The notes beneath the pieces are model-generated. The model was not told the origin of the DNA, ran no database searches, and saw only the letters and a list, made by a program, of their open reading frames with translations. Positions 1-35,093 of a DNA stretch of 42,254 bases are shown piece by piece. Numbering within the stretch: the first letter of the stretch is position 1; each line of letters starts with the position of its first letter. The translations under genes were made by a program, and so were the position numbers. The DNA is from Acidimicrobiales bacterium (GTDB lineage Bacteria > Actinomycetota > Acidimicrobiia > Acidimicrobiales > VFJN01). The stretch spans positions 1 through 42,254 of the forward strand of contig DASSUD010000322.1 in the NCBI GenBank assembly GCA_035707385.1. Reading direction: 5' to 3'.

Positions 1-313
1 CCGCGGCGAGCAGCACGGCGGACGCGCCCGCGGCCCCGGCGGCGGCGACGTGGCGGCGCGAGGTCACGAAGTCCTTGACCAGGACGGGCAAGGACGTCGC
101 CTCGACCACCTCGGCCAGCAGCTCCGCGCTCCCCCCGAACCAGCGGCCCGTCACCACCGAGAGGCAGGCGGCCCCCGCCCGCTCGTAGGCGGCCGCCACG
201 GCGGCCGGCGAGCGATCGGCGAGCAGGTCGGCGCCGGCGCCGGACCGGCGCTTCACCTCCATGATGAGCGCCGGCCGGGCGGCCGCGACCGCGGCGACGA
301 AGGGAGCGGTCAC
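1..313 (-). CDS. trpC: Indole-3-glycerol-phosphate synthase (TrpC)-like; only the N-terminal part, ORF runs off the left window edge
   Basis: Not in the ORF track because it is open at the edge. Hand translation of the minus strand from GTG 313..311 gives VTAPFVAAVAAARPALIMEVKRRSGAGADLLADRSPAAVAAAYERAGAACLSVVTGRWFGGSAELLAEVVEATSLPVLVKDFVTSRRHVAAAGAAGASAVLLAA... IGPS hallmarks are present: E-x-K (EVKRRS), Y..GA..lSVvT, PVLvKDF, GA.AVLL. The GTG overlaps the trpF-like stop (GTGA at 310-313). Confidence 0.75.
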   Translation of the reverse strand, partial: MTAPFVAAVAAARPALIMEVKRRSGAGADLLADRSPAAVAAAYERAGAACLSVVTGRWFGGSAELLAEVVEATSLPVLVKDFVTSRRHVAAAGAAGASAVLLAA

Positions 314-990
314 CGGTCCCGGCCCCCGGGCGACCAGGCGGCCCGGACGGCCGCCACCCGCGCCGGGCACAGGCTCCCGCCGGCCCCGCGCGCCGCGGTG
401 TCCACGTCGATCCCGGCGAAGCCGGGCCGGGCCAGCGTGCCGGGGAACGGCCCCCCGCCCGCGGCCGACACGCCGCCGGCCCGCAGGAACGGCCGGTCCA
501 GGCCGGCGGCCGCCCCGGCGGCCACCGCGTCCGGCACCGGCAGCCCCGTGCTGCCCACCCGGCCGCCCGGCCCGACGCGATCGAGGAGGAACAGGTCGGT
601 CCCGGCCCGCCCGTAGGCGGCCGCCAGGCCCGCCTCCACGCACCCGTCGCCCGTCAGGTGGAGGACCTTGACGAGGGCCACCCCCGGCCCGAGCGCGTCC
701 CGCAGGCGCCGGACCGACACCGGCCGGCCGTAGCCGTGGAGCTGGACCCACCGGACACCGGTGGCCCGCACCGCGGCGGCCACCGCCCCGGGGTCCTCGC
801 GGAGGGTGACGAGCACGGGCTCGGGACCACCCTCGTCGCGGGCGGCCGCCGCCAGGCGTGCCGCGGTGGCGAGGTCCAGGTCCGCGTGCCCACCCGGCAC
901 GCCGTGCCACAGGCCGGCGAGGTCGACGCCGGCCGCCCGCAGTACCTCCAGGTCGGCCTCCGTGCGGGCGCCGCACACCTTCACCAGCAC
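310..990 (-). CDS. trpF: Phosphoribosylanthranilate isomerase (TrpF)-like
   Basis: ORF 310..990, 226 aa. The N-terminus MLVKVCGARTEADL matches the PRAI 'vKiCG' start (catalytic Cys). VQLHG and FLLD (catalytic Asp region) are present, and GGRVGSTG resembles the GGtG phosphate loop. It starts 8 nt after the ACAD stop. Confidence 0.85.
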   Translation of the reverse strand: MLVKVCGARTEADLEVLRAAGVDLAGLWHGVPGGHADLDLATAARLAAAARDEGGPEPVLVTLREDPGAVAAAVRATGVRWVQLHGYGRPVSVRRLRDALGPGVALVKVLHLTGDGCVEAGLAAAYGRAGTDLFLLDRVGPGGRVGSTGLPVPDAVAAGAAAGLDRPFLRAGGVSAAGGGPFPGTLARPGFAGIDVDTAARGAGGSLCPARVAAVRAAWSPGGRDR

Positions 991-997
991 CGGGACC

Positions 998-2149
998 TCA
1001 CAGCCGCAGGAGGGACGCGATCCGGTTCTGCTGGATCTCGGACGTCCCCGAGTAGATCGTTCCGGCCACGGCGTCGCGCAGGTCCTTCTCGATGCCGTGG
1101 CCCGCCAGGTAGCCGGCTCCCCCGAAGATCTGCACCGCGGCCAGGGCCGAGGCCACGTTGCTCTCGCTGGTGACCAGCTTGGCGATGGCGATGTCCTCGG
1201 TGGCGACCTCGCCGGCCACCAGGCGGGCGGCGGCGTCGTAGAGCCACTTGCGCGACGTCTCGGTGTCGATGCGCATGCGCACGACCTTGTTGGCGATCGC
1301 CTGGAACGAGCCGATCCGCTGGCCGAACTGGCGGCGGGCCCGCGCGTGGTCGATGCAGCGCTCGAGCCGGTGCTGCATGTCGCCGACGTTCACCACGAAC
1401 GACAGGAGGACCTCCCACGCCATGACCCGCTCGAGCACCCGGTAGCCGCCGCCCTCCCGCCCGATGCGGTGGGCGACGGGGACGGCGCAGCCCTCGAAGC
1501 GCAGCTCGCCGAGGGGCGCCGTCCGCAGGCCCATCGTCTGCAGGGGCGGTCCCACCTCCACCCCGGCCCGGGCCCGCTCCACCAGGAAGGCCGAGATGCC
1601 GAGCGGGCCGCCGTCGGGGTGGGTGCGGGCGTACACCGTGAACAGGTCGGCGACGGGCGCATTGGTGACGAGCGTCTTGCCGCCGTCGAGGACGTAGCAG
1701 TCCCGCTGGCGGGTGGCCGTGGTCTGCATCCGCAGGGCGTCGGACCCGCCGGAGGGCTCGGTGATGGCGTGCGCGCCGACGGCCTCGCCCGAGCAGATCC
1801 GGGGCAGGAACCGCCGCCGCAGCTCCTCGCTCCCGAACATGTGCAGCGGGGCGCCGACGCCCACGATCTGGGTGGTGGCCGCGAACTTGAGACCGCCGTC
1901 GCGGCACGCGTAGCCCAGTGCCTCGAGCACGAACATGGTGCTCAGCAGGTCGTGCTCCTCGCCGCCGCAGTCCCGGCCGAACGGGAGGCGGAACAGGCCG
2001 GTGGCGCGCAGCAGGTCCCACGCGGCCCGGGGGAACGCGGCGGCGCCGTCGCGCTCGACGTGCCCGTCGGTGAGTGCGCCGAAGCAGGGCAGGAAGCGAT
2101 CGCGCAGGGCGCGCTGCTCCTCGGTGGCGGTGGCGGTCAGCGGTCCCAC
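998..2149 (-). CDS. Acyl-CoA/acyl-carrier-protein dehydrogenase family flavoprotein
   Basis: ORF 998..2149, 383 aa. ACAD signatures: AHAITEPSGGSDA, RRQFGQRIGSFQAI, C-terminal TIYSGTSEIQQNRIA. Ser occupies the position of the MCAD/SCAD catalytic Glu (IYEGT). A Glu in MAWEVLL sits 30 residues before the FG motif, as in IVD-type enzymes (by-eye alignment). Confidence 0.9.
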   Translation of the reverse strand: MGPLTATATEEQRALRDRFLPCFGALTDGHVERDGAAAFPRAAWDLLRATGLFRLPFGRDCGGEEHDLLSTMFVLEALGYACRDGGLKFAATTQIVGVGAPLHMFGSEELRRRFLPRICSGEAVGAHAITEPSGGSDALRMQTTATRQRDCYVLDGGKTLVTNAPVADLFTVYARTHPDGGPLGISAFLVERARAGVEVGPPLQTMGLRTAPLGELRFEGCAVPVAHRIGREGGGYRVLERVMAWEVLLSFVVNVGDMQHRLERCIDHARARRQFGQRIGSFQAIANKVVRMRIDTETSRKWLYDAAARLVAGEVATEDIAIAKLVTSESNVASALAAVQIFGGAGYLAGHGIEKDLRDAVAGTIYSGTSEIQQNRIASLLRL

Positions 2150-2150
2150 C

Positions 2151-2549
2151 TCAGTAGCAGGAGGCCTCGGCCCCGTCCCAGCGGTGGACCTCGGCGCCCT
2201 GCAGGGCGGGGCTGAACACGCAGACGAGCCGCAGGTCGACCCCCGGATCGGCCGCGAGCACGTGGCGGTCGTGCTGGTCGAGGGCGTAGAGCGTGCCGGG
2301 GACGATGCGGTGGACGTTGCCGTGGTCGTCGGTCACCGTGCCGGTGCCCTCGACGCAGTAGCAGGCCTCCAGGTGGTGGCGGTACTCGAGCAGCGACGCG
2401 GTGCCGGCCGACACGATGGTGTCGGTGACCGTGTAGCCCATGGCGTCCGAGGCCAGCAGCAGGCGGCGGCTCAGGCCGTTGCCCCACTCGACGGTCGTCG
2501 CGGTACTGATGTGTCGCACGATCACGACGGTTCCTCTCTCCTTCTTCAT
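2151..2549 (-). CDS. ectC: Ectoine synthase (EctC)-family cupin, solitary
   Basis: Last 132 aa of track ORF 2151..3725, from ATG 2549..2547: MKKERGTVVIVRHIS...RRLLLASDAMGYTVTDTIVSAGTASLLEYRHHLEACYCVEGTGTV...GTLYALDQHDRHVLAA...VCVFSPALQGAEVHRWDG. This is colinear with canonical EctC (IVRnl, YkhHfEAvYCieGeG, YiLDqHDeHlL, CVFtPgLtGnEVH). The ATG overlaps the trpA-like stop (ATGA at 2546-2549). An earlier alternative start is not excluded. Confidence 0.85.
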   Translation of the reverse strand: MKKERGTVVIVRHISTATTVEWGNGLSRRLLLASDAMGYTVTDTIVSAGTASLLEYRHHLEACYCVEGTGTVTDDHGNVHRIVPGTLYALDQHDRHVLAADPGVDLRLVCVFSPALQGAEVHRWDGAEASCY

Positions 2550-3325
2550 CCGACGAGCTCGACCGCGAGGGCCGCCAGGGCCGCGGCGACGTCGCGACCC
2601 CGGGCCGCCGCCTCCTCCGCCCGGGCGACCGCCGCGCTGCCGACGATCACGCCGTCGGCCCCGGTGGACCGGACTGCGGCCACGTCGGCCCGGGTGCGGA
2701 CCCCGAACCCCACCGCCACCGGCGCCCGGGCCCGGGCCCGGCGGACGGCTGGGGCCAGCGCCGCGTACCCGGCGGGCGGCCGCTCCCCGGTCCGGCCCCG
2801 GTGGGCCGCCAGGTAGAGGTAGGCGGTGGCGGCCGCCGCGGCGCGTCCCGCCACCTCGGGGCTCGACGTCGGGTAGCAGGTCGTCACGACGGGCAGGCCC
2901 GCGGCACCGGCCGCGTCCAGGTAGGCGGGGGCCAGGCGGGGCGGCAGGCCGTGGACCAGGGTCGCGTCGACGGCGCCGGCCACGCGCTCCACCCACCGGC
3001 CGACAGGGGCCGGCGCGATGCTGTGGCGCCAGTCGGCCAGCAGCACGAGGCGCAGGTGGCGCAGCTGCGGGCGCAGCGCCGCCGCGGCCTCGGTCACCGC
3101 CTCCAGGTCGACACCGGCGGCCAGCGCCCGGGCGAGCGACCGGCGCACGACGGGGCCGTCGGTCACCGATTCCGGGAACGGCACGGCCAGCTCCAGGCAG
3201 TCGACGCCGCTCTCGTCGAGGGCGCCGGCGACCTCCGGGAGGGCGGCGAGCGGCGGGTCGCCCGCCGTCAGGAACAGCACCAGGCCCGAGCCCCTGCCCG
3301 GTGGGCGCAGGAAGCCGGTGCTCAC
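2546..3325 (-). CDS. trpA: Tryptophan synthase alpha chain (TrpA)-like
   Basis: C-terminal 259 aa of track ORF 2546..3712, from GTG 3325..3323 (GTGA overlap with the trpD-like stop). Motifs: LTAGDPPL, DCLELAVPFPESVTDGPVV (the Glu and Asp of the ELG.PFSDP.ADGP motif are retained), VAVGFGVRT, GVIVGSA. Confidence 0.85.
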   Translation of the reverse strand: MSTGFLRPPGRGSGLVLFLTAGDPPLAALPEVAGALDESGVDCLELAVPFPESVTDGPVVRRSLARALAAGVDLEAVTEAAAALRPQLRHLRLVLLADWRHSIAPAPVGRWVERVAGAVDATLVHGLPPRLAPAYLDAAGAAGLPVVTTCYPTSSPEVAGRAAAAATAYLYLAAHRGRTGERPPAGYAALAPAVRRARARAPVAVGFGVRTRADVAAVRSTGADGVIVGSAAVARAEEAAARGRDVAAALAALAVELVG

Positions 3326-4362
3326 GGCGCCACCGCGACCGTGTGCTCCCGACCGGCACGCAACCGCTCGACCAGCCCCACGGCCGCGCCCCGGTCGAGG
3401 GCCGAGCGGGCCGCGGCCTCGGCGTCGTCCCAGTCGTCGGTGTGCCCCGCGGCCACGACCGCCGCCGCGGCGTTGAGGCAGACCGTGCGCAGTGCCGCCT
3501 CCGGCCCGACCCCGGCCAGGATGTCGAGGAAGTGGCCGGCGACCGCGGACACCCGCGGTGCGGGTGCCAGGTCGGCGAGCGACGGCTCGGGCTCGCCCGC
3601 GGCCGAGGGCCGGGCGGCCAGTGCGACGGCGCCGGACCGCCGGTTCCGCAGGATGACGTTGGGGACGAAGCTGACCAGCTCGTCGATCCCGAGGGCGTTG
3701 GTGCACAGCCACACGTCCCGGTCACGGCACCGCTCCGCCAGGTACCGCAGCTGGGGGAGCGGTGCGGCCCCGGAGGCGCCGACCACCTGGACCGACACCG
3801 GCAGCACCGCCAGGAAGGGGCCCACGCTGTTCACGAAGCGTCCCAGCCGCCGCAGGTCGAGGGGGTGGAGGCTGCGCGCCAGGTCCGCCAGCTCGGGCGG
3901 GTAGACGGCGCCGCCGGCGAAGGCGACCCCGTGGCGGTCGAGCATGTCCGCCACCGCCTCGTGCGAGAGCGCGAGGGGGATGCCGAGCAGCCCCAGCAGC
4001 TCGAGCGATCCGCACCGGCTGGCGAACCCACCCGACCCGGACTTGGCCACGGGCACGCCGAGGGTGGCGGCCACCAGCGCGGCGGCCGTCGACACGTTGA
4101 ACGTCGGCGGGCCGCCCCCCGTCCCGACCAGGTTGACCGCGCCGTCGAGCCGGTCCGCCGGAGCCGGGACCCGCTCCCGCAGCGACTCGACGAACGCCGC
4201 CACGGTGGGACCGGCCGGCGCCCTGGCCGCCAGCGAGGCCAGCAGGGCTACCGTCTCCCCGGCGGCCAGGCGCCCGGCGGCCAGGTCGTCCCAGAAGGTC
4301 CGCCAGGTACCGGCGTCGACGACGCCGTTGCCGTCGACGACGGACTGGACCGCGGTGTGCAC
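3322..4362 (-). CDS. Glycosyltransferase family 3 protein, divergent anthranilate phosphoribosyltransferase (TrpD)-like
   Basis: ORF 3322..4362, 346 aa, GTG start. LVGTGGGPPTFNVSTAAALVAATLGVPVAKSGSGGFASRCGSLELLGLLG is colinear with TrpD GTGGDG..t.N.ST...v.A..G..V.KHGNR..SS..G.aD.LEaLG. However, GTGGD is GTGGG here and KHGNR is KSGSG. The GIDEL (DE) motif is retained. Confidence 0.75.
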   Translation of the reverse strand: MHTAVQSVVDGNGVVDAGTWRTFWDDLAAGRLAAGETVALLASLAARAPAGPTVAAFVESLRERVPAPADRLDGAVNLVGTGGGPPTFNVSTAAALVAATLGVPVAKSGSGGFASRCGSLELLGLLGIPLALSHEAVADMLDRHGVAFAGGAVYPPELADLARSLHPLDLRRLGRFVNSVGPFLAVLPVSVQVVGASGAAPLPQLRYLAERCRDRDVWLCTNALGIDELVSFVPNVILRNRRSGAVALAARPSAAGEPEPSLADLAPAPRVSAVAGHFLDILAGVGPEAALRTVCLNAAAAVVAAGHTDDWDDAEAAARSALDRGAAVGLVERLRAGREHTVAVAP

Positions 4363-4383
4363 GATCGGGCCCGGCTGGGTGGG

Positions 4384-4656
4384 TCAGGGCGCGTCGGCGG
4401 TCGCGGGCTGGGGCCGCGCCCCGGCGAGCAGCCGCGCCATGGCGGCCACGGTGGCCAGGTCGTCGGGGCCGACGTCGACCTCGTCGGTCGGGAAGTCGTA
4501 GGTGGCCTCGAGCCACGCCAGGACCTTGAGCAGCCCGAGGCTGTCGATGACGCCGCCCGCGACCAGGTCGTAGTCGGGATCGAGCCCGCCGTGGCCGACG
4601 TCGGGCAGGAACTCGTCGAGTACGAAGGCCGTGATGGCGGCGATCGGGGTCTCCAT
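4384..4656 (-). CDS. Acyl/peptidyl carrier protein
   Basis: Last 90 aa of track ORF 4384..5151, from ATG 4656..4654, preceded by AGGAAGG (reverse complement of 4663-4669). METPIAAITAFVLDEFLP...LVAGGVIDSLGLLKVLAWLE contains the DSL phosphopantetheinyl-Ser motif. Confidence 0.85.
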   Translation of the reverse strand: METPIAAITAFVLDEFLPDVGHGGLDPDYDLVAGGVIDSLGLLKVLAWLEATYDFPTDEVDVGPDDLATVAAMARLLAGARPQPATADAP

Positions 4657-4679
4657 GGATCTGACCTTCCTGTCCCGCA

Positions 4680-6173
4680 TCAGGACGTCGCGAGGGCGGC
4701 GGCGATGGACCGCCGGTCGGGCTTGCCGGTCGAGGTCCGGGGCAGGGGAAGGTCCCCCAGCCGGATGGACGAGGGGATGGCGGCAGCGGCCAGGCGGCCG
4801 GCGCAGTAGGACCGCAGCGCCAGGCTGTCGAGCCCGCTGCCGGCCGCCCGCTGGACCACGGCATGGAGCGCGTGCCCGCCCACGGGGTCCGGGGCCGCCA
4901 CGACGGCGGCGTCGACCACGTGGGGATGGGTGCGCAGCAACTGCTCCACCTGGGCGGTGTCGACCCGGACGCCGCGCACCTTCACCTGGTGGTCGCGGCG
5001 GCCGGTGAGGACGATGCGCCCGGTGGCGTCGCGGGCCACCAGGTCCCCGGTGCGGAACCAGGGACGCTCGGGCGTCTCGGGGCGGGGCGCGAACGGCTGG
5101 GGCCCGCCGCCGCCGGCGTAGCCGGTCGTCTGGAACGGGGTCGACACCCACAGCTCGCCCTCGCCGGCCCCGCCGACCTCGGCACCGTCCGGGCCGACGA
5201 TGACCGCCGACACGCCCGGGAGGGGGCGCCCGATGGGCAGCACGCCGCCGCGGGCGCCGTCGAACGGGTCGTCACCGAGCTCATGGGCGAAGCTGTCGTT
5301 GGTCTCGGTGCAGCCGTAGACGTTGTGGAGCCGGGCCGCCGGCGCCAGGTCGCGCAGCCGCAGGGCGTCGGCGGGGGAGAGGTGGTCCCCGGTGAAGATC
5401 ACGTGCCGCAGGTGGCCCAGCGGGGCGCCCGCCGTCGCCGGGCTGCCGAGCAGCAGGCGGTAGACCATGGGCACGGCCTGCACGACCTCGACCCGGTGCA
5501 CCGACAGCAGCCGGTGGAGGTGGTCCGGCCGGACCTCGCGCCCGGGTTCGACCAGGACGACCTGCCCGCCGGCGGACAGCGTCGCCCACACGTCGAGCAG
5601 GCTGAGGTCGAAGTGCAGGGGAGCGTGGCTGAGCACCGCCGTGCCCGGGGCCAGGCCGAAGCGGTCGATGGCCCAGGCCACGAAGCGGCCGACGGCCCCC
5701 CCGCCGAGCGGGACGACCTTCGGTACCCCGGTGGTGCCCGACGTCGTCAGCAGGAGCGCCGGGTGGTCGCCCGCGCCGCCGGCGGGGCTCGCGGCGGTGG
5801 CCGGCCCCGCGGGGTGGGGGACGGCCTCGGGCGCGCGGGGGTCGCCGTGGGGGAGCCCGTAGCGGCAACCGGCCCGGGCCCACAGGGCGGTGCGGGTGGC
5901 CGGCGCCAGGTCCGGCGGGACGAGCAGGACGGGCCGGCGCTCACGCAGGCAGGCGAGCACCAGCGCCACCGCGGCCGGGCCCTTGGTGAGCGCGGCACCG
6001 AGCGGCTCGCCGGGAGCGCGGCCCAGGTCGCGGAGGCCGGCTCCGGCGTCGGCGGCCAGCTCGTCGAGCCCGCGGTAGGTCACGGCGCCGCCCTGCCATG
6101 CCAGGGCGGTCGCAGCGGGCCTGCGGGCGACGTGGGTCGCGACGGCGGCGGCGATGTCGAGCGGCTCAACCAC
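4680..6173 (-). CDS. Stand-alone adenylate-forming (A-domain / AMP-binding) enzyme
   Basis: ORF 4680..6173, 497 aa, GTG start. Core motifs: LLLTTSGTTGVPKVV (A3), HFDLSLLDVW (A4), NVYGCTETN (A5), WFRTGDL (A7), GRRDHQVKVRGVRV (A8), TSTGKPDRR (A10 Lys). Hand-read 10-residue code: D-L-L-Q-I-T-V-D-S-K. Confidence 0.9.
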   Translation of the reverse strand: MVEPLDIAAAVATHVARRPAATALAWQGGAVTYRGLDELAADAGAGLRDLGRAPGEPLGAALTKGPAAVALVLACLRERRPVLLVPPDLAPATRTALWARAGCRYGLPHGDPRAPEAVPHPAGPATAASPAGGAGDHPALLLTTSGTTGVPKVVPLGGGAVGRFVAWAIDRFGLAPGTAVLSHAPLHFDLSLLDVWATLSAGGQVVLVEPGREVRPDHLHRLLSVHRVEVVQAVPMVYRLLLGSPATAGAPLGHLRHVIFTGDHLSPADALRLRDLAPAARLHNVYGCTETNDSFAHELGDDPFDGARGGVLPIGRPLPGVSAVIVGPDGAEVGGAGEGELWVSTPFQTTGYAGGGGPQPFAPRPETPERPWFRTGDLVARDATGRIVLTGRRDHQVKVRGVRVDTAQVEQLLRTHPHVVDAAVVAAPDPVGGHALHAVVQRAAGSGLDSLALRSYCAGRLAAAAIPSSIRLGDLPLPRTSTGKPDRRSIAAALATS

Positions 6174-7029
6174 GGTCCGGGCGAACCTCGACCCAGCCGT
6201 TCTTGAGGGCGGTGCGGCCCCCGGCGGAGACGGTGAACGGCACGCGGTCCCCGGCCGGCTCGTGAACGGAGACGACCACGACCTCCCCCACGGGGACGGG
6301 GTGGGCGAAGCGGGCGCCGGCCCCGCGGACGAGGCCGGCGTCCCCGGCGGCGCACGTGTCGACGACGACCTCGCAGGCGAGCGCCAGCAGGTGCATGCCG
6401 TGCGTGACGGTTCCCTCGAACCCGGCCGCCCGGGCCTGGGCCGCGTCGAGGTGCACGGGGTTGCGGTCGCCGGACACCTCGGCGTAGCGCTCGGTCGCGC
6501 CGGGCGGGAGCTGCACCACCACCGGCGCCACCGGGTCGCTGGTGCGGCCGCTCCAGGGGCGGGGCCAGTCGCCGAAGGGCTCGGGCCAGCGGGCGGCCGG
6601 CAGCAGCGCCCCCGTTGACAGCTCGGCCACCGTGGCTCCGCCCTCGCCCACCAGGCGGGCGCGCAGGGCCAGGGAGACCCCGGCCCGGTGGCGGCGGGCC
6701 CCCACCAGCTCGGCCCGGGCCGACAGGAGCTCGCCGGCCCGCGGGGAGCGGAGCAGCCGCACGTCCTGGCTGAGGTGCACCGGGGTCGGCGTCACGCCGG
6801 GATTGGCGGCCAGCACGCCGGCCAGCACCTCGACGACCGCGTCCCACGCCAGCACGAAGGGGTACACGGGCGACGGCGCAGGCCCGGCGGCCGGCCCGCC
6901 GATCTCGCGCCGCACGGCGGCGCGGTAGGCCGCGGCGGCCCGAGCCTCCAGCGGGCGGGCAGGCGTGGCCGCGGCGGCCGGCGGCGCGGCCACGGGCGCG
7001 GCCACGGGCGTGCCGGCGGGGCTGCTCAC
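6166..7029 (-). CDS. Double hot-dog MaoC-type (R)-specific enoyl hydratase / 3-hydroxyacyl dehydratase
   Basis: C-terminal 287 aa of track ORF 6166..8313, from GTG 7029..7027 (GTGA overlap with the KS stop). The C-terminal half carries the hydratase-2 motif YAEVSGDRNPVHLDAAQARAAGF. The N-terminal half resembles the non-catalytic MaoC_N hot-dog (PVHLSQDVRLLRSP). Confidence 0.8.
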   Translation of the reverse strand: MSSPAGTPVAAPVAAPPAAAATPARPLEARAAAAYRAAVRREIGGPAAGPAPSPVYPFVLAWDAVVEVLAGVLAANPGVTPTPVHLSQDVRLLRSPRAGELLSARAELVGARRHRAGVSLALRARLVGEGGATVAELSTGALLPAARWPEPFGDWPRPWSGRTSDPVAPVVVQLPPGATERYAEVSGDRNPVHLDAAQARAAGFEGTVTHGMHLLALACEVVVDTCAAGDAGLVRGAGARFAHPVPVGEVVVVSVHEPAGDRVPFTVSAGGRTALKNGWVEVRPDRG

Positions 7030-8763: not shown

Positions 8764-8775
8764 GCGCCGAGCCGC

Positions 8776-26026: not shown

Positions 26027-26048
26027 GGGAGCTAGCCGCGCAGCTCCC
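26027..26048. terminator. 7-bp perfect stem hairpin between convergent genes
   Basis: GGGAGCT-agccgcgc-AGCTCCC. It starts 9 nt after the sbnA-like stop and spans the stop codon of the minus-strand membrane-protein gene. There is no U-tract. Confidence 0.3.
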
Positions 26049-26709: not shown

Positions 26710-26891
26710 GCGGTCCCCTTCGCGTCCGTGTCTCCGGAGGGCACCGTAACGGCGCCCCGGTCGAGCGGTCACCGGGCCGCCGGCGGTTTCGCCTGCCACC
26801 CGGGGATGAGGGCACCTTCGTCCGGGGGAGGGCCCGGGACGCGACCGGCGACCGATATACAGGGCTGACGAGTCCGGGGTTCAATCGCCTC

Positions 26892-27707
26892 ATGGACGCG
26901 AAGCTCGAAGAGGCCACGGCCGCGCCGGAGCCCGGGGGGCGCTCCGGTGGCGGCGCCGCCGCCGTGCCGGCGCTGGCCTGCCGTGACCTCGTGTACGCGT
27001 TCGGCGACCGCACGGCCGTTGACCACCTGTCGTTCGAGGTGCGCCCGGGCGAGGCGTACGGGCTGCTCGGCCCCAACGGGGCCGGCAAGACCACCACGAT
27101 CCGGCTCGTGTGCGGGATGCTCGATCCCGACGACGGCGGGGTCGAGGTGTGCGGCCGGTCGCTGCGCGGACGCGGCGGGCGGGCCGCCCGGGGCCTGCTG
27201 CGCTACGTGCCCCAGGGTCTGGCTCTGTTCCCCACGCTGACACTGGCCGAGAACCTCGACTTCTGGGCCAGGATGTACGGGATCGACCGCCGCACCCGGG
27301 CCGGCGCGGTCCGCCGCGCCCTGGAGCTGGTCGAGCTGACCGGCCGGGCCGACGACCGGGCGGAGCGCACCTCGGGCGGCATGCAGCGGCGGCTCAACCT
27401 GGCGGTGGCGCTCCTCGACGAGGGAGCCGCACTGCTCGTCCTCGACGAGCCCACGGTGGGGGTCGACGCCCAGAGCCGGGCCGCGCTGATCGAGACCATC
27501 GGCGGCCTGCGGGACAAGGGGATGGCCGTGCTCTACACCAGCCACTACTTCGACGAGGTGGAGCGGCTGTGCGACCGCGTGGGGATCATCGACCACGGGC
27601 GCCTCGTGCTGGAAGGGTCGCCGGCCGAGGTGGTGGCCGGGGGCGACGGCACCGCCGACCTGCAGGACCTGTTCCTGGCGGTGACCGGCCGGGACCTACG
27701 TGAGTGA
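26892..27707 (+). CDS. ABC transporter ATP-binding protein (DrrA/ABC-2 type)
   Basis: ORF 26892..27707, 271 aa. Walker A GPNGAGKTT, signature SGGMQRRL, Walker B LLVLDEPTVGVD, H-loop TSHY. Confidence 0.9.
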   Translation: MDAKLEEATAAPEPGGRSGGGAAAVPALACRDLVYAFGDRTAVDHLSFEVRPGEAYGLLGPNGAGKTTTIRLVCGMLDPDDGGVEVCGRSLRGRGGRAARGLLRYVPQGLALFPTLTLAENLDFWARMYGIDRRTRAGAVRRALELVELTGRADDRAERTSGGMQRRLNLAVALLDEGAALLVLDEPTVGVDAQSRAALIETIGGLRDKGMAVLYTSHYFDEVERLCDRVGIIDHGRLVLEGSPAEVVAGGDGTADLQDLFLAVTGRDLRE

Positions 27708-28836: not shown

Positions 28837-29978
28837 GGCAGGTGCTGGGGATGATGTGGGTCGATCGCCGCCTCCTGCGGCGCGACCACGTCGGGCTGTT
28901 CTTCACCTTCCTCCTGCCACTCGCCGTCGCCGCCGTGCTGGCCCCGATCTACATCGCCGAGGGAGGGACCCGGGCATCGGTGGCGCTCGTCGCCGAGGGT
29001 CCGGGCCCGGTGACCGAGCTGTTCTCCGACCGGCTGGGCCGCAGCCCGGGCCTGGAGCTCCGGCGCTACGCCGATCGGGAGGCCGCCGAGCTCGCGGTCC
29101 GGCGGCGTGACGTCAGCGCAGCGGTCGTCCTGCCGGCCGGGCTCGGCGAAGGGGGCACCGCGCCGGACCGCGTGGAGCTGGTCGGTCCACCCGAGGTCGC
29201 GGCGCCGGACGGCGTGCGCGCCGCGGTGGAGTCCGCGGCGGCGGAGACGGCGGCCCTGGTGGTGGCCGCCCGGGCGCTGGAGCCCGGCGCCGCGCTGGAG
29301 GACGGGCTCGAGGTCGCGGCCGGCCGGGCCGGCGGGGCGCTCGACGGGGCCGCCGCCGCGGCGCAGCCGGCGGAGCGGCGCAACGCCAACGCGGCCAGCG
29401 CCGTGATCGGCGTGGTGGTGCTGTTCGCCTTCGTGAACACGATGGCCAAGTCGTCGCAGCTCGCCTCGTACCGGGAGCTCGGGGTGCTCGGCCGGTTGCG
29501 GGCCATGCCGGTGACGTCGACCCAGGTGGCCCTCGGGTTCGCGCTGGGGCTCGCCGGCTACGCCGCGGCGCAGGGCCTGCTGGTGGTGGCCGGTGCCACG
29601 CTGTTCCTCGGCGTGTCGTGGCCCCAGCCGCTCCTCGTCGTCGCCTTCGTCCTCGTCGTCGGGCTGGTGGCGGGGGGGCTGAGCGCGCTGGTCGGCTGTG
29701 TGCTGCCGTCCTCGTCGGCCGGTGTGACGATCGCGGGCCCGGTGGGCTTCGTGCTCGCCATGCTGGGCGGTTGCCTGTGGCCGCTCGGGCTGGTCGGCCC
29801 GGCGATGCGGGCCGTCGGGCACCTGACGCCCCACGCCTGGGCGGTGGACGGGCTCAACGCCGTCGTGTTCGGCTGGCCCACCGGCGACTGGGTGGTGCCG
29901 CTCCTGGTGCTGGCGGGCTTCGCCGTGGCCCTCGCCGCGCTGGCCGGTCGCGCCCTGCGGCTGGCCGTGACGGCCTGA
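28833..29978 (+). CDS. Second ABC-2 type transporter permease
   Basis: In frame within track ORF 28488..29978; ATG 28833 overlaps the preceding stop (ATGA). MRQVLGMMWVDRRLLRRDHVGLFFTFLLPLAVAAVL..., with the same architecture as the preceding permease. Confidence 0.8.
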   Translation: MRQVLGMMWVDRRLLRRDHVGLFFTFLLPLAVAAVLAPIYIAEGGTRASVALVAEGPGPVTELFSDRLGRSPGLELRRYADREAAELAVRRRDVSAAVVLPAGLGEGGTAPDRVELVGPPEVAAPDGVRAAVESAAAETAALVVAARALEPGAALEDGLEVAAGRAGGALDGAAAAAQPAERRNANAASAVIGVVVLFAFVNTMAKSSQLASYRELGVLGRLRAMPVTSTQVALGFALGLAGYAAAQGLLVVAGATLFLGVSWPQPLLVVAFVLVVGLVAGGLSALVGCVLPSSSAGVTIAGPVGFVLAMLGGCLWPLGLVGPAMRAVGHLTPHAWAVDGLNAVVFGWPTGDWVVPLLVLAGFAVALAALAGRALRLAVTA

Positions 29979-30018
29979 CGATGCGCCCGCCCCTGCGGCG
30001 CCGCGCGCGGGCTCCGGC

Positions 30019-33000
30019 GTGACGGTGGAGATCCGCCTCCTCGGGCAGGTCGCCATGTGCCGGGACGGCCGGGAGGTGGTGGTCACCAGTCCGCAGGCCC
30101 AGGTGGCGCTGGCCCGCCTGACCATCGAGCGGGGCAGTGGCACGACCCGCTACTCGCTGGCGGACACCCTGTGGCCCGGCGGTGTGCCGGCCACCTGGAC
30201 CTCGGCGCTGCGAGGTGTGGTCAGCCGCGTGCGGGCGGCGCTGGCCGCTGTCGTGCCGGACGGCCCCGGCTCCCTCCTGTCCGTGGGCGGGACCTACCGG
30301 CTGCGGCTCCCGGCCGACGTCGAGGTCGACGTCGAGCGGGCCGAGGGCGCGCTGGCGGCGGCGCAGCGGCTGCTGGCGGACGGCGAGCCGGGCCCCGCGG
30401 CCCGCCGGGCCAGGGACGCCGCCGCGCTGCTGGCCCTGCCGTTCCTGCCCCACCACGACAGCGACTGGGCACGGGAGGTTCGTGACCGCCTGGCCGAGGG
30501 GACGGTCACGGCCTATGAGACGGCCAGCCGGGCGGCGCTGGGCTCGGATCCCGCGGAGGCCCTGGTGTTCGCCAACCAGGCCGTCGCGGCGGCGCCGCTG
30601 CGGGAGAGCGCGCACCGGTGTCGCATCGCGGCCCACGCCGCGGCGGGCAACCGGGCCGACGCGCTGCGTGCCTACCAGGACCTGCGACGGGTGCTCGCCG
30701 AGGAGCTGGGCGTCGACCCGTCGGAGGAGTCCGAGGCCGCGTACCTCGGCCTCCTGGTCACCGCCCGCGGTGACCCCGCGGGGGCCGGACCGCTGCGGGG
30801 CGGGCGGCCGCTGCCGTTCGTCGGCCGGCGCGCCGAGCTGGCGACGATCAGCGGCCGGTGGGCGGCCGCCGGGGGAGCGCGCGGTGCGTCCCACATGGTC
30901 GTCGTGACCGGCGGGCCGGGTGCGGGCAAGACCCGGCTGGCGGCAGAGGCGGGCGCGCTCATCGCCGCCGGCGGCGGCATGGTCCTACAGGGCCGGGCAC
31001 AACCCGCGCCGGGCGATCCGTGCGGCGTGCTGGTCGAGGCGTTCGACGGCTATCTCGGGTCGACGCCCGCCGACGAGCGCCCGGTGCTCAGTGCCGCCGC
31101 CCGCGGCGAGCTGGCGGCGGTCATGCCGTCCCTGCGCACGCCATCGAGCCCCCGCCGGCGGCCGACGTCCGGGGCGGCCGTCTCCGGCGCGCTCACCGAG
31201 CTGGCACAGGCGGCGGGGCGCGACCGGCCGCTGTGCCTGGTGCTGGACGACCTCGCCGGGGCCGACCGGCACACGTTCCGGTGCCTGTGGCGGCTACTCA
31301 CGGGAGGCGGCACCCGCCTGCTCGTCGTCGCCACCGCCCGCGGGGCCAGCGGGCGGCCGAACGCCTACGCCGCCCTCGTCGACGGCCTGGTCGCGGACTC
31401 CCGCCTGACCGAGGTCGGCCTGGCCGGCCTGGCCGCGGCCGAGGTCCAGGAGCTGGTCGACGCCGTTCTCGACGAGCCCCGGGCCGCCCGCCGGGCGGTG
31501 GCGCGCACGCTGGTCGACGACACGGCGGGCAACCCGTACCTGCTGACCGCTCTGCTCGAGGCCCGGTCGGGGCCGGCAGCCCCGTCGCCGGTCACCGGTC
31601 CCGTGCCGCCCAGGGTGGCCTCGTGGGTGGAGGCCCGGCTGGCCGGACTGGACGAGCCGGCGTGGGCGCTGGCCCGATCGGCCGCGGTGGCCGGCCAGGG
31701 GTGCGAGGTCGACCTGGTGGTGCGGGCGTCGGGCCTCGGCCCGGCGGCGGCGCTGCGCGGCCTGGAGCAGCTGATCGACGCCGGCCTGGCCGCCGAGGTC
31801 GCTCCCGATGCGGAGTTCCCGACCCGGCTGCGCTTCGTGCACGACGTCACCCGCCGGGTCGTCCTCGACGGGCTGTCCGGGATACGGCGCCACCGGCTCC
31901 ACCTGGCTCTGGCCGACGCCATCGAGCAGCTCCCGCCTGGCGCCGCGGACCGCTTCGTGGCGCGGCTGGCGTACCACCGGGCCGCCGGGTCCGATCCTCC
32001 CGACGACCGGGTGTCCGCCTCCCTCCGCGACGCCGGCCGGGCGTTCGGAGGCCGGTCGGCCCACCAGGCCGTCCGGCTGCTCCGCCAGGCGTACGAGTAC
32101 GCGCCCCCCTCGGACCAGCCGCTCCGCGCCGGCACCCTCGCCGACCTCGGGCTCGCCCTCGTCGCCGTCGACCCCCGCGACGCGGCCCAGACCTTGATGC
32201 AGGCGGCCATCGAGGCCCGGGGTTGCCGGCGGGGCGACATCGCGGCCCGGGCTCTCGTCGGGCTGATCGACGCGGCCCGGCGCAGCGGGACGCTGGGCGG
32301 CGAGGCCGGCGCCCTGATCGACGGCCTGCTGCGCTGGTCAGGGGAGTCGGCGGTGGCGATGGACCCGCTGGACAGGGCGCGCCTGGTCGCCGCGCACGTC
32401 GCCCGCGGCGGCCGCGTGCCGGGAGACGCCCCTGCACTGCTGGCGCAGGCGGCGCGTGACCTGGCGGTGGAGCTGGAGCGGTCCGGGGGCTTCGAGCGCC
32501 TCGACGAGCGCCGCCTGCTGGCCGCCGACCTGGCGGCCGTGGCCGCGGCGGCGGGCGACACCCGCGCCCTGGTCGACGCCGCGCACCACCAGGCGACGGC
32601 GGCCGGCCTGGCGGGCGACCGCGCCGCGGTGCGGCAGGTGCTCGCCGGGCTGGGCACGGGACCCGCGGGCGACGAACCGGCCACGACCCGGATGCTGGTC
32701 GGCTACCACCTGGCCGTGGCGGTCACGGAGGGGCGCGTGACCGACGCCTACGCGCTGGCGCCGCTCGCCGGGCGGGAGGCCGGAGCCGAGCTGGCGGTGG
32801 CGCGCTGGTTGGAGGAGGGGCGCCTGCAGCCCGCCGGCGCCGACCCCGAGGCCAAGGCGGCCCCGCTGTGGCGGGCGGTGGCCGCGCTGGCCGCCGGCGA
32901 CCGGGGCGAGGCGCACGTGGTGGCGCGGGCTCTCGCCACCGGGATCGAACCGCTGGCCCCCGGCGACGCCTGGCCACACGCGGTGGGTCTGCTGGCGGTG

Positions 33001-33345
33001 CTCGCGGTCGAGCTGGGCGACGCCACGACGGCCGCCGCGGTCCGGTCGCTCCTCGCCCCGTTCGCCGGCCTCGACTGCTCGCTGGGCTACACCGGCCACG
33101 TCGGTCCCGTCGAGCTGCACCTGGCGCGGCTCGCCCTGGTGACCGGGGAGTGGTCCGAGGCCGAGCGGCAGAGCACCGCGGCCCTCCACCGCCTGACCGG
33201 GCTGCGGGCCCTGCCGTGGATGGGCCTCGCCCGCACCGCCCTCGCCGACGCGCTGGAGGGACGCGGCCGCCTGCACGACCGCGACTGGATCGACGAGCTC
33301 CGGGCGGAGGCCCTCCGATCGGCGCCTCGCAGGTCCCCCGTGTAG
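30019..33345 (+). CDS. Large SARP/AfsR-type regulator (OmpR-like DNA-binding plus BTAD, P-loop NTPase, TPR-like C-terminus)
   Basis: ORF 30019..33345, 1108 aa, GTG start. The N-terminus VEIRLLGQVAMCRDGREVVV... and LRAYQDLRRVLAEELGVDPSEESEAAYLGLL are typical BTAD. Walker A: VVTGGPGAGKTRLA. Walker B-like: LCLVLDDL. The C-terminus is long and Ala/Leu-rich helical. Confidence 0.85.
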   Translation: MTVEIRLLGQVAMCRDGREVVVTSPQAQVALARLTIERGSGTTRYSLADTLWPGGVPATWTSALRGVVSRVRAALAAVVPDGPGSLLSVGGTYRLRLPADVEVDVERAEGALAAAQRLLADGEPGPAARRARDAAALLALPFLPHHDSDWAREVRDRLAEGTVTAYETASRAALGSDPAEALVFANQAVAAAPLRESAHRCRIAAHAAAGNRADALRAYQDLRRVLAEELGVDPSEESEAAYLGLLVTARGDPAGAGPLRGGRPLPFVGRRAELATISGRWAAAGGARGASHMVVVTGGPGAGKTRLAAEAGALIAAGGGMVLQGRAQPAPGDPCGVLVEAFDGYLGSTPADERPVLSAAARGELAAVMPSLRTPSSPRRRPTSGAAVSGALTELAQAAGRDRPLCLVLDDLAGADRHTFRCLWRLLTGGGTRLLVVATARGASGRPNAYAALVDGLVADSRLTEVGLAGLAAAEVQELVDAVLDEPRAARRAVARTLVDDTAGNPYLLTALLEARSGPAAPSPVTGPVPPRVASWVEARLAGLDEPAWALARSAAVAGQGCEVDLVVRASGLGPAAALRGLEQLIDAGLAAEVAPDAEFPTRLRFVHDVTRRVVLDGLSGIRRHRLHLALADAIEQLPPGAADRFVARLAYHRAAGSDPPDDRVSASLRDAGRAFGGRSAHQAVRLLRQAYEYAPPSDQPLRAGTLADLGLALVAVDPRDAAQTLMQAAIEARGCRRGDIAARALVGLIDAARRSGTLGGEAGALIDGLLRWSGESAVAMDPLDRARLVAAHVARGGRVPGDAPALLAQAARDLAVELERSGGFERLDERRLLAADLAAVAAAAGDTRALVDAAHHQATAAGLAGDRAAVRQVLAGLGTGPAGDEPATTRMLVGYHLAVAVTEGRVTDAYALAPLAGREAGAELAVARWLEEGRLQPAGADPEAKAAPLWRAVAALAAGDRGEAHVVARALATGIEPLAPGDAWPHAVGLLAVLAVELGDATTAAAVRSLLAPFAGLDCSLGYTGHVGPVELHLARLALVTGEWSEAERQSTAALHRLTGLRALPWMGLARTALADALEGRGRLHDRDWIDELRAEALRSAPRRSPV

Positions 33346-33377
33346 GAGCTACCAGCCCGAGGTCGGCGCGCAGCCTG

Positions 33378-35093
33378 CTAGGTCGGCACCGGGGGCGAGT
33401 AGCCGCGGGGCGGCTGGCTGGTCGCCACGTCGCCGTCCTGGAGGGCCCGGACCACCAGGGCGTGTGTGAACCGGTATCCGGCGGGCGCGGGCCCGGCCCG
33501 GAGGAGCCCGGCCCGGACGACCTCGTCGAGGGGCCCCCGCAGCATCGCCGGGGGTGCCCCGGTGGCGGCGGCGAGGTCGTCGAGCTCGAACGTGGCCCCC
33601 AATGCACCGGCGGCGATCGCCACCTCGCGGGCACGCACGGGGAGTTGGTTGAGGCGCCAGCGGACGACGTGCACGAGCTCCGCCGGGGCGGTGTGCTGCG
33701 CGGCCCGCAGGCCCTCGACGAGGTCGGCGCGGGTCCGGGCACCACCGGCGACCGCCCGTACGAGCGCCGGGTTGCCGGCGGCGGCGTCGCCCAGCCAGGC
33801 CACGAGCGGCACCGCCGCGGGCGGCAGGTCGCCGCCGGCTGCGTGCGACACCAGCCGGCACACGTCCTCGCGGGCGAGCCCCCCGACGTCGACGCGGGCG
33901 GTGGCCCAGCCGTCCGGGCCCGCATCGCCGGCAGCGAGCGCCTCGCGCACGTCGTCCAGCTCGGTCTCGTCGCCGCGGCCGGTGACCACCACCATGAGCG
34001 GGCGGTCCGCCAGCGCCTGGCGCACGTGGTCGAGCATGTGGATGGTCGGCCGGTCTGCCCACTGGAAGTCCTCGAGCACCAGCAGCGTGGCGTGCCGGCC
34101 GGTGAGCGCGACGAGCCAGCCGGCGACCGCGTCGAAGACCCGGCCCTCGTCGAAGGCCTCGCGGGGCCGGGCCAGCACCGACCGCCCGCGGCCGGTGAGC
34201 TCGGACAGCAGGCGCCCGCCGTCCTCGCCCAGGCCGGCGAGGTCGTCCTGCAGGACGGCGGGCGGGCACACCGACGCGTAGGTGGCCAGGGCCTCCCGCA
34301 CCGGCTGGTAGCTGGCAGTGCCGGTCGGGTCCCAGCGGCCGTAGAGGACCAGGGCGCCGGCGGCGTGGGCCCGGATGGCGAGGTCGGCCGCCAGCATGGT
34401 CTTGCCGGCACCGGCCTCGCCGGACACGATCACGAGGTGGGGGCGCCCGTCCCGGGTGGCAGCCCACGCCCGGTCGAGCGTCGACGCCTCCCGGTCCCGG
34501 CCGATCAGCGGGCCGCGGGTGGCCCGCCGGGCCCAGTCCAGGGCCGACGCGACCAGCGCGGGACCGCCCGGGCCGTCCGGGTCGACCCGGCGCAAGAGGT
34601 AGCTGCGCTCGGCCGGGGCCGCACTGGCGGCCCGCCCGGCGCTGCGGTCGGTGAGCACGACCGTCGCGGGGAGCGTCGGGCCGGCCATCACCGCGGCGGA
34701 GGCCGCGGCGACGATCTCGCCCGGCCCGGCCTCACCGGCGAGGGCCAGTGCCCGGTCCAGCGCGCCCGGGCCGCCGTTCCCCTCGGCGGCGGCCCGCCCG
34801 GTGCACAGCGCGGCCCGTCGCGGGCCGCCCGGGGGCACGAGATCGAGGGCGGCTCGGGCCGCATCCGCAGCGAGATAGAAGGCAGCGGCGAACGGAGGGG
34901 GGTCGCCACCGCAGAGAGCCGGGTCGAGGGCCTGGCCGCCCGCCTCGGCCACGGTGCCGGCCGTGCGGTGGGCAGGACCGGCCTCGGGGCCGTGCACCAC
35001 GAGGAAGGTGAGGATGCCGCGCCCGGGCGCGGGACGCAGGAGGCTCGGGTCGCGCGCGGGCGGCGCCGCCTCAGCCGCGCCCATCGGCTCCAC
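33378..35093 (-). CDS. AAA_16-type ATPase regulator with degenerate cyclase-homology-like N-terminus; no recognisable C-terminal HTH
   Basis: ORF 33378..35093, 571 aa. Walker A: VIVSGEAGAGKTMLA. Walker B-like: TLLVLEDFQWAD. The N-terminal ~150 aa loosely resemble class III cyclase-homology domains found on LuxR/AAA regulators. The protein ends without a LuxR-type HTH. Confidence 0.7.
   Translation of the reverse strand: MEPMGAAEAAPPARDPSLLRPAPGRGILTFLVVHGPEAGPAHRTAGTVAEAGGQALDPALCGGDPPPFAAAFYLAADAARAALDLVPPGGPRRAALCTGRAAAEGNGGPGALDRALALAGEAGPGEIVAAASAAVMAGPTLPATVVLTDRSAGRAASAAPAERSYLLRRVDPDGPGGPALVASALDWARRATRGPLIGRDREASTLDRAWAATRDGRPHLVIVSGEAGAGKTMLAADLAIRAHAAGALVLYGRWDPTGTASYQPVREALATYASVCPPAVLQDDLAGLGEDGGRLLSELTGRGRSVLARPREAFDEGRVFDAVAGWLVALTGRHATLLVLEDFQWADRPTIHMLDHVRQALADRPLMVVVTGRGDETELDDVREALAAGDAGPDGWATARVDVGGLAREDVCRLVSHAAGGDLPPAAVPLVAWLGDAAAGNPALVRAVAGGARTRADLVEGLRAAQHTAPAELVHVVRWRLNQLPVRAREVAIAAGALGATFELDDLAAATGAPPAMLRGPLDEVVRAGLLRAGPAPAGYRFTHALVVRALQDGDVATSQPPRGYSPPVPT

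Follow-up and report, generated by a model that had tools for sequence, protein, structure and literature searches.

A kosinostatin-type cassette joined to fatty-acid-synthase-like and diaminopropionate-NRPS genes in a predicted antibiotic gene cluster of an Acidimicrobiales bacterium

We analyzed a stretch of 42,254 nucleotides (contig DASSUD010000322.1, GenBank assembly GCA_035707385.1, Acidimicrobiales bacterium; hereafter the window), whose positions 1 to 35093 had been described from the letters alone as a large lipopeptide-type nonribosomal peptide synthetase (NRPS) gene cluster with an unusual accessory set. The gene cluster is real, of antibiotic type and uncharacterized, and it comes from an actinobacterium with very GC-rich DNA. 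The greater part of its unusual accessory set proved to be one known building-block cassette, that of the kosinostatin cluster: going by gene order and homology, positions 1 to 6173 are predicted to be one unit that makes a bicyclic-amidine (pyrrolopyrrole) block, linked to a peptidyl carrier protein (PCP), from a heterocyclic acid and phosphoribosyl pyrophosphate (PRPP). The cassette and the fatty acid synthase (FAS)-like genes beside it form unit A (1 to 12741), and unit B (12806 to 29978) combines a supply of L-2,3-diaminopropionate (Dap) with a small NRPS. We hold it fairly probable that the two units form one hybrid biosynthetic gene cluster (BGC) with a single pathway. The product would probably be an acyl/bicyclic-amidine-bearing (hydroxy)Asn-D-Dap-type peptide and not a Trp-containing lipopeptide.

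Because the GC content of about 77% throughout the window makes raw open reading frame lists useless, genes were called from third-position GC and the rule that GC1 exceeds GC2; all candidates were scanned with Pfam, and the key ones also with NCBIfam. Third-position GC calling together with the hidden Markov model (HMM) searches gave 29 genes in 1 to 35093 (Table 1). The original prediction had described about 30 co-oriented, tightly coupled genes, whereas the genes lie in nine strand blocks and overlap or abut only within each block. Its family calls fared better. The HMM searches bear out the NRPS, FAS, EctC-like and SbnA/SbnB-like calls, as well as those of the acyl-CoA dehydrogenase (ACAD), TauD, GNAT fusion, ABC exporter, SARP and AAA proteins. 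The same holds for the NRPS proteins of adenylation-thiolation (A-T) and condensation-A-T-epimerization (C-A-T-E) type, identified by Pfam domains and E-domain motifs, and for the stand-alone adenylating enzyme (A enzyme) with its carrier protein (Pfam AMP-binding; weak PP-binding with a DSL serine). The four Trp-branch paralogues also stand, as TrpD-, TrpA- and TrpC-like proteins by Pfam and a divergent TrpF recognized by NCBIfam and its relatives. These calls support the general description as a hybrid FAS/NRPS secondary-metabolite cluster.

The cassette runs A enzyme, PCP, TrpD-, TrpA- and EctC-like proteins, ACAD, TrpF- and TrpC-like proteins, and is colinear with the ksn locus L092 of the Streptomyces albidoflavus group at 48 to 63% protein identity (62% for the TrpC-like protein, 58% for the ACAD and 62% for the EctC-like protein). 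The TrpF-like protein, which has no Pfam match, is 52% identical to the phosphoribosylanthranilate isomerase (PRAI) genes of both L092 and a further cassette locus, L051. Directly before the cassette, L051 and the S. albidoflavus-group loci L091 and L092 carry a SnoaL cyclase, an aromatase, KS-alpha, a chain-length factor (CLF) and an acyl carrier protein (ACP), and the A enzymes of the S. albidoflavus group and of S. spiroverticillatus are 82 to 84% identical to that of L051. A protein search with the L051 A enzyme gave generic names only, and the link to kosinostatin goes through the S. albidoflavus and S. spiroverticillatus matches and PMC13099267. The kosinostatin BGC (ksn) is present in S. 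albidoflavus FXJ6.189 and in S. spiroverticillatus; this region, of antiSMASH type 'T2PKS, ectoine, NRPS', was found complete in just 18 of 34,389 genomes, and deletion of ksnC3, a putative PRAI gene, abolishes kosinostatin (PMC13099267). The same eight genes, in the same order as in the window, make up the kstB/kstC pyrrolopyrrole sub-cluster of kosinostatin/quinocycline biosynthesis (named kst in Micromonospora sp. TP-A0468 and ksn in S. albidoflavus FXJ6.189), including the position of the EctC-like and ACAD genes between the TrpA-like and TrpF-like genes. Furthermore, the specificity code of the A enzyme, DLLAITVDSK, follows a pattern, DLL(A/G/S)xTxDSK, common to the ksn enzyme and seven other cassettes, so the same substrate is expected in all of them. 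Colinearity, sequence identity and the common code argue that the eight genes are one building-block unit. All Trp-like genes of the window score under the NCBIfam equivalog cut-offs (for the TrpD-like protein, 133 bits against a TIGR01245 trpD cut-off of 199), and the window has no TrpE, TrpG or TrpB.

Known EctC enzymes turn N-acyl diamino acids, and also glutamine, into cyclic amidines. The EctC-like cupin of the window scores 142 bits, over the NCBIfam ectoine-synthase cut-off of 128, and keeps the Glu/Tyr/His metal ligands when aligned to P. lautus EctC, in agreement with the earlier call of an EctC cupin. Given this known chemistry and the retained ligands, it may close the amidine, as a proposed amidine-forming cyclodehydratase. 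The homologue had been taken for an unprecedented add-on, whereas it belongs to the kosinostatin-type cassette. Ectoine synthesis was also considered and rejected, as the window has no EctA or EctB gene; it lacks an aminotransferase, and the one GNAT gene, 19 kb distant, encodes a fusion protein of 642 aa. The protein passes the subfamily cut-off at about 45% identity to bona fide EctC, and its 124-aa clade is distinct and, in the contexts opened, always inside the cassette, unlike the EctABC setting.

By second-hand account, the PCP of the kosinostatin cassette is loaded with a small heterocyclic acid, reported as nicotinic acid, and PRPP with Trp-pathway-like chemistry leads to the pyrrolopyrrole bicyclic amidine (PMC7918784; PMC13099267). 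The top PDB match of the window ACAD is the prolyl-ACP dehydrogenase 4irn (AnaB; 5e-83), and the A enzyme has retained Asp235 as well as an Asp in position 8 of its code. A proline-like amino acid suits these features better than nicotinic acid, the reported precursor, and, as a speculation, 2-amino-1-pyrroline-5-carboxylate made by EctC is a conceivable alternative substrate for the A enzyme. The window sequences raise a question about the published nicotinic acid precursor of the kosinostatin cassette.

The cassette is not confined to kosinostatin producers. A GTDB scan found the EctC-like marker gene in at least 587 species genomes, and the window protein shares 63 to 72% identity with a large actinobacterial clade of 'ectoine synthases' of 124 aa. 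All opened contexts of this clade show the gene string AMP-binding, PCP, TrpD-, TrpA- and EctC-like, ACAD, (Transglut_core), (TrpB-like PALP), PRAI, indole-3-glycerol-phosphate synthase (IGPS), (UbiD, UbiX). For the comparison of related loci we took the 80 best EctC-like loci from these GTDB species genomes (L008 to L087). Searched by tblastn with the window proteins, nearly every one of them has all eight cassette genes, at 40 to 70% identity. Orthologues of the ketosynthase (KS) and/or the beta-ketoacyl-ACP synthase III (KASIII) of the window, at 56 to 61%, accompany the cassette in 46 of the 80 loci; a type II aromatic polyketide synthase (PKS) does so in only two, and about 18 have UbiD, TrpB-like or Transglut_core genes instead. 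Two loci, from an Acidimicrobiales metagenome-assembled genome (L043) and from Streptomyces cirratus JCM 4738 (L066), share with window positions 1 to 10541 the same 13-gene synteny, in which ACP, KASIII and a ketoreductase (KR) are divergent from KS-MaoC-A-PCP-TrpD-TrpA-EctC-ACAD-TrpF-TrpC, with a SARP gene nearby. On this conservation, the FAS-like genes are predicted to belong with the cassette. No product has been assigned to the cassette-plus-FAS class in the literature searched.

A third cassette variant was seen in Alloactinosynnema sp. L-07 (L004, LN850107.1) and Actinocrispum sp. (L005, L008), where it includes a 454-aa TrpB-like PALP, UbiD/UbiX and Transglut_core. It adjoins a LanM-type lanthipeptide synthetase, and its product might be a free tryptophan-analogue amino acid.

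The FAS-like genes of the window amount to KASIII, KS, ACP, KR, dehydratase and enoyl reductase (ER), with intact catalytic triads in KS and KASIII, as expected from the dedicated type II FAS set that had been proposed. The FabI-type ER and the PQQ-type beta-propeller lipoprotein, the latter absent from the original gene list, occur in none of the 80 related loci. The propeller is probably extracytoplasmic according to its lipoprotein signal, which is odd for a gene translationally coupled to an enoyl reductase.

Several differences separate the window from a kosinostatin cluster. A Transglut_core gene stands between ACAD and PRAI in L051, L091 and L092 and is absent from the window (22 of the 80 loci have one). 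Kosinostatin has a type II aromatic PKS and branched-octose sugar genes, whereas the window has no CLF, cyclase or sugar genes. Its cassette is instead joined to a FabF-type KS and MaoC, paired with ACP, KASIII, KR and ER, with the Dap/NRPS unit beyond. Lacking both the Transglut_core gene and the aromatic PKS partner, the window does not represent a kosinostatin cluster, and its product cannot be an anthracycline because FAS-like and Dap/NRPS genes replace the aromatic PKS.

In unit B, the predicted dedicated supply of Dap is well supported, since CmnB and CmnK are the nearest solved relatives of its PALP/OCD pair, followed by SbnA and SbnB; this matches the SbnA/SbnB-like pair and Dap supply put forward originally. 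The OCD protein also matches the SbnB-type structure 4m54 at 1.8e-34. The best relatives of the pair are CmnB-CmnK (VioB-VioK) of capreomycin/viomycin and SbnA-SbnB of staphyloferrin B, and its best NCBIfam models are SbnA and SbnB. Both proteins, however, fall under the equivalog cut-offs (PALP protein, 330 bits against 350 for TIGR03945; OCD protein, 207 bits against 327 for TIGR03944). The setting also differs from these systems: the two genes are non-adjacent and divergent, with the GNAT fusion and two other genes between them, and have neither a tuberactinomycin pentapeptide NRPS nor an NRPS-independent (NIS) siderophore synthetase beside them.

The C-A-T-E protein of the NRPS carries the E-domain motifs HHLVVDAVSW and FNYAGR. 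Its code is Ser-like with Glu at position 278, from which Dap would be its substrate. The TauD gene overlaps the A-T gene and is translationally coupled to it. The TauD protein is closest in the PDB to At3g21360 and then to an unnamed TauD/TfdA protein, and a PDB sequence search gave no match to AsnO or VioC at E <= 1e-5. It may act by on-carrier beta-hydroxylation of the SyrP kind. The hydroxy-Asn of the original prediction remains plausible given the Asn-like A-T code and the coupled TauD, but an AsnO-like hydroxylase does not fit. The C domain is nearest to those of Txo2, Txo1, TycC and fuscachelin (1e-78 to 1e-59), whereas the starter C domains RzmA and CDA-C1 match it only at about 1e-15. 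Since its nearest relatives form peptide bonds, lipid attachment would not proceed by classical lipo-initiation, and initiation of the CDA type was rejected on the same distance from starter domains.

Between the two Dap genes lies a very rare gene that serves as the signature of unit B, a GNAT domain fused to a beta-rich region, with only six relatives in 5.8 billion proteins. Its three other contexts (L088, L089, L090) all hold an SbnA-like gene together with NRPS or PKS genes; an OCD gene, a TauD gene and the same ABC-2 pump are each found in two of them. As L090 is merely a close relative (93% identity) matching window positions 16679 to 34178, two independent contigs are left, both metagenomic: L088, with an aryl-polyene-like FAS, and L089, with a trans-AT PKS. 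Because the fusion adjoins other lipid or polyketide sets there, unit B is suggested to need an acyl supply, which here would come from unit A. An exact-sequence look-up of the fusion returned no record, and a JGI metagenome scan with its alignment gave 600 pattern matches with no relative among them. The AlphaFold2 model, built on a seven-sequence alignment, has a mean pLDDT of 53, and Foldseek returned only low-TM (0.2) matches to the LacZ beta-sandwich. L088 (ENA ERZ25039531 contig_110006) encodes an SbnA-like protein, TauD, an AsnB-like amidotransferase, an Asp/Glu racemase and A-T-C and A-T-TE NRPS proteins besides its FAS, and is reminiscent of the dapdiamide pathway in its Dap-synthase-like, oxygenase and amidotransferase genes.

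From these genes we infer the NRPS substrates, the roles of the EctC-like, GNAT-fusion and TauD proteins and the sharing of one product by units A and B, as follows. In unit A, the cassette would make a pyrrolopyrrole bicyclic amidine on the PCP in the manner of kosinostatin; it is in one operon with the FabF-type KS and dehydratase, and the divergent ACP, KASIII, KR and ER would make or extend an acyl chain. In unit B, the CmnB/CmnK (SbnA/SbnB)-type pair would make L-2,3-diaminopropionate. The A-T protein would load an Asn-like residue, which the coupled TauD probably hydroxylates while carrier-bound, and the C-A-T-E protein would condense it with a second small residue, putatively Dap, and epimerize. 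The best candidate for attaching an acyl group to an amine on the Dap peptide is the GNAT fusion, which might instead serve self-protection by acetylating the product. The ABC-2 pump would export the product, and the SARP- and AAA-type proteins would regulate the cluster.

Several observations weigh against this pathway. Units A and B each occur alone elsewhere: no unit B gene lies within 10 kb of the cassette in the 80 loci, and the sole other copy of the junction is the 93%-identical L090, which ends inside the NRPS gene. Consequently, the co-function of the units is read only from their adjacency. The window has no Acyl_transf_1 or ACPS match, that is, no malonyl-CoA:ACP transacylase (FabD) or phosphopantetheinyl transferase (PPTase), functions presumably supplied by primary metabolism; likewise, it has no NRPS release domain (no Thioesterase or NAD_binding_4 match, no terminal C). 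The C domain is of the ordinary peptide-bond type and there is no starter C domain, the TauD protein is not close to the characterized Asn/Asp hydroxylases of solved structure, and the C-terminal region of the GNAT fusion has no usable match in Pfam (E <= 10), in NCBIfam (run on the whole protein) or by PDB sequence search. Finally, nicotinic acid as precursor fits poorly with a prolyl-type ACAD and with Asp235 in the A domain, and the details of the cassette chemistry are second-hand. The separate occurrence of the units bears on a reading as two independent neighboring clusters, in which unit A would make its own small lipid-linked or alkylated bicyclic-amidine metabolite, presumably like its counterparts in dozens of further actinobacteria, and unit B a small Dap-containing dipeptide. 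L043, L066 and many other loci indeed have unit A as a self-contained 13-gene block with a SARP gene of its own and no unit B gene, the unit B core occurs in L088 and L089 without the cassette, and here the two meet at a convergent gene pair (12741/12806). Yet the gap between them is only 65 bp, with no unrelated gene. SARP and AAA genes like those flanking unit A elsewhere stand here beyond unit B, which therefore falls within the cluster. Elsewhere unit B is always beside acyl-chain machinery, which in the window only unit A can provide, and an NRPS with no release domain of its own also speaks in favor of one pathway. We regard two separate clusters as unlikely.

The cda cluster holds trp paralogues and a fabH/fabF/ACP set, and the original prediction modeled the product on it, as a CDA-like lipopeptide in which the Trp paralogues supply Trp or indole, the A enzyme, PCP and ACAD make a red-type pyrrole-2-carboxyl group, and EctC is an independent accessory. 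The family calls behind this model are correct, and it also draws support from the ACAD, whose nearest relatives are prolyl-carrier-protein dehydrogenases, and from the PltF-like A enzyme. Nevertheless, the eight genes are one colinear cassette in nearly all 80 loci and in the kosinostatin cluster, which largely refutes the Trp-supply reading and displaces the analogies to cda Trp supply and to red M/O/W. The missing TrpE, TrpG and TrpB, the sub-cut-off scores of the Trp-like genes and NRPS codes that are Asn-like and Ser-like, not Trp-like, argue against Trp or indole in the product, and neither the C domain (not a starter) nor the TauD protein (not AsnO-like) conforms to the model, which we judge highly improbable. 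The resemblances to the two S. coelicolor clusters are superficial. Both cda and red have a KASIII/ACP/KS acyl set, as does the window. The A enzyme, PCP and ACAD of redM/O/W are also present, but as part of a kst-type cassette and not of a pyrrole-only pathway. Like cda, the window has Trp-pathway paralogues and a 2-oxoglutarate oxygenase, but without TrpE/TrpG, an AsnO-type hydroxylase, a starter C domain or a large multimodular NRPS. Another possibility would apply ectoine-like logic to Dap, with the GNAT N-acylating Dap and the EctC-like cupin cyclizing it to a 2-substituted imidazoline carboxylate for the NRPS. The window does have a GNAT, genes to supply a diamino acid and an EctC homologue whose metal ligands are intact, and the amidine-forming chemistry of EctC enzymes on N-acyl diamino acids and glutamine would be suited to it. 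However, 19 kb separate the GNAT gene from the EctC-like gene, which is part of the cassette operon and occurs in all 80 loci without a nearby Dap-synthase or GNAT-fusion gene, and L088 and L089, which have the GNAT fusion, lack an EctC-like gene. With the two genes apart both here and elsewhere, EctA/EctC-like cyclization of Dap was rejected and is hardly credible. The single hybrid pathway remains the reading we prefer, and, as the original prediction had supposed, no characterized cluster with the whole combination of cassette, FAS, Dap and NRPS genes was found in the literature searched.

Truncation of the cluster at its left edge, as claimed previously, is real in that the TrpC-like gene is cut, but it is nominal, with about 450 bp missing. 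The Logan contig L001, 98.9% identical to window positions 1 to 3621, reaches 3.1 kb further left; there the TrpC-like gene is complete at 253 aa and stops about 450 bp past the edge, and a histidine kinase and a response regulator follow. Relatives at 93 to 99% identity, or the same cluster, are present in public data (L001, Logan SRR30610596; L002, SRR26663017; L003, SRR33145331; L090, ENA ERZ23476923). The source organism appears unrepresented among reference genomes, since no EctC-like gene of the GTDB species genomes exceeds 71% identity. Scans of the window for Rfam families, tRNAs, promoters and terminators found nothing.

Among the remaining genes, the 315-aa protein beside the GNAT fusion had been called a StrR-type regulator. 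It has no Pfam match at E <= 10, no NCBIfam match and nothing usable in a PDB sequence search, which leaves that call without HMM support and with only a DGLHR motif seen by eye. The hydrophobic membrane protein likewise has no family match (Pfam at E <= 10, NCBIfam, PDB sequence search). The ABC exporter shares 56 to 66% identity with the transporter that adjoins the L088 GNAT fusion, and relatives of the SARP, at about 40% identity, flank the cassette/FAS unit in other genomes. Third-position GC exceeds 0.9 over nearly the whole AAA_16 open reading frame. Just beyond it, the glyoxalase family protein is a possible resistance gene whose membership in the cluster is uncertain. The right flank (35224 to 42114) encodes, besides this glyoxalase/bleomycin-resistance-type protein, a cytochrome c, an MT0933-like antitoxin-family protein, a P450, a short-chain dehydrogenase/reductase (SDR), a nucleotidyltransferase-domain protein, a YjbR-like protein and an FAD oxidoreductase. 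An HTH_11-WYL-WCX regulator at 35727 to 36670 is split over two frames (WYL ends at about 36293, and the WCX frame stops at 36670), as a frameshifted pseudogene or through an assembly error around 36290 to 36320.

Table 1. Genes called in positions 1 to 35093 of the window and the first gene of its right flank
Feature	Positions	Strand	Evidence
TrpC-like indole-3-glycerol-phosphate synthase homologue	1-313	-	Pfam IGPS 7.6e-22; N-terminal ~104 aa in window
Divergent TrpF-like phosphoribosylanthranilate isomerase homologue (KsnC3-type)	310-990	-	NCBIfam PRAI 3.9e-11, under cut-off
Acyl-CoA dehydrogenase, prolyl-carrier-protein dehydrogenase type	998-2149	-	Pfam ACAD N/M/C domains
EctC-like cupin, 124 aa	2151-2525	-	Pfam Ectoine_synth 2e-38; GTG start at 2525 with AAGGAGA ribosome-binding site
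TrpA-like (tryptophan synthase alpha homologue)	2546-3325	-	Pfam Trp_syntA 1.6e-39; 59% identity to L092
TrpD-like phosphoribosyltransferase homologue	3322-4362	-	Pfam Glycos_transf_3 2.8e-30; 48% identity to L092
Peptidyl carrier protein	4384-4680	-	Weak Pfam PP-binding; DSL serine motif; 57% identity to L092
Stand-alone adenylating enzyme (KstB1/Ksn-type)	4680-6173	-	Pfam AMP-binding 2e-53; 48% identity to L092
MaoC-type dehydratase	6166-7029	-	Pfam MaoC_dehydratas 6e-20; orthologues (~42%) beside cassette in 29/80 loci
FabF-type ketosynthase, intact Cys-His-His	7026-8255	-	Pfam ketoacyl-synt; orthologues (~58%) beside cassette in 42/80 loci
Acyl carrier protein	8500-8763	+	Pfam PP-binding 3.8e-6; DSL motif
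KASIII (FabH-type), Cys-His-Asn	8776-9774	+	Pfam ACP_syn_III, ACP_syn_III_C; orthologues (~60%) in 14/80 loci
FabG-type ketoreductase	9771-10541	+	Pfam adh_short 2e-48; orthologues (~57%) in 21/80 loci
FabI-type enoyl reductase	10538-11383	+	Pfam adh_short_C2 2e-59
PQQ-type beta-propeller lipoprotein	11380-12741	+	Pfam PQQ_2, PQQ; signal peptide …LLLAAASCGGG
NRPS C-A-T-E	12806-17290	-	Pfam Condensation x2, AMP-binding, PP-binding; code DVWEVCVIDK
NRPS A-T loading module	17287-19098	-	Pfam AMP-binding, PP-binding; code DFTKVGEVGK, Asn-like
TauD/TfdA-family Fe(II)/2-oxoglutarate dioxygenase	19086-20135	-	Pfam TauD 4e-43; HxE motif
SbnB/CmnK-like dehydrogenase	20208-21200	+	Pfam OCD_Mu_crystall; CmnK 3.1e-54
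GNAT (~residues 30-180) fused to ~460-aa beta-rich region, 642 aa	21183-23111	-	Pfam Acetyltransf_1
315-aa protein, ParB/StrR-like DGLHR motif (by eye)	23096-24043	-	60% identical in L088; conserved beside GNAT fusion
HTH_23-type DNA-binding protein	24040-24801	-	Pfam HTH_23 2.6e-13
SbnA/CmnB-like PLP enzyme	24948-26018	+	Pfam PALP; CmnB 2.4e-75, SbnA 1.9e-56
Hydrophobic membrane protein	26032-26799	-	Sequence read directly; absent from original gene list
ABC exporter: ATPase 26892-27707, ABC-2 permeases 27700-28836 and 28833-29978	26892-29978	+	Pfam ABC_tran, ABC2_membrane_3
Large SARP-type regulator (BTAD + AAA_16)	30019-33345	+	Pfam BTAD, AAA_16
AAA_16 (STAND-type) NTPase, putative regulator	33378-35093	-	Pfam AAA_16 1.9e-22
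Glyoxalase/bleomycin-resistance family protein	35224-35694	-	Pfam Glyoxalase 4.9e-10; just beyond 1-35093

On these results, a bicyclic amidine takes the place of Trp, indole or pyrrole in the structural prediction for this region. Kosinostatin is the only characterized setting of the cassette, yet hundreds of actinobacterial species carry its EctC-like gene, mostly next to FAS-like genes. What was known from a single rare antibiotic is thus widespread, and in most cases attached to FAS-like clusters with no assigned product. We put forward, as a possible but tentative interpretation, that the kosinostatin-type cassette is mainly the core of a large FAS-linked cluster family, and that the window records its recruitment into a Dap-dipeptide NRPS pathway, whose product would be a lipid- or acyl-linked pyrrolopyrrole amidine placed on (hydroxy)Asn-D-Dap through the GNAT fusion. 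The window holds the cluster in compact and nearly complete form, together with a SARP activator of its own and a very rare, Dap-tied GNAT-fusion gene. If the interpretation is true, the product would be a new scaffold.

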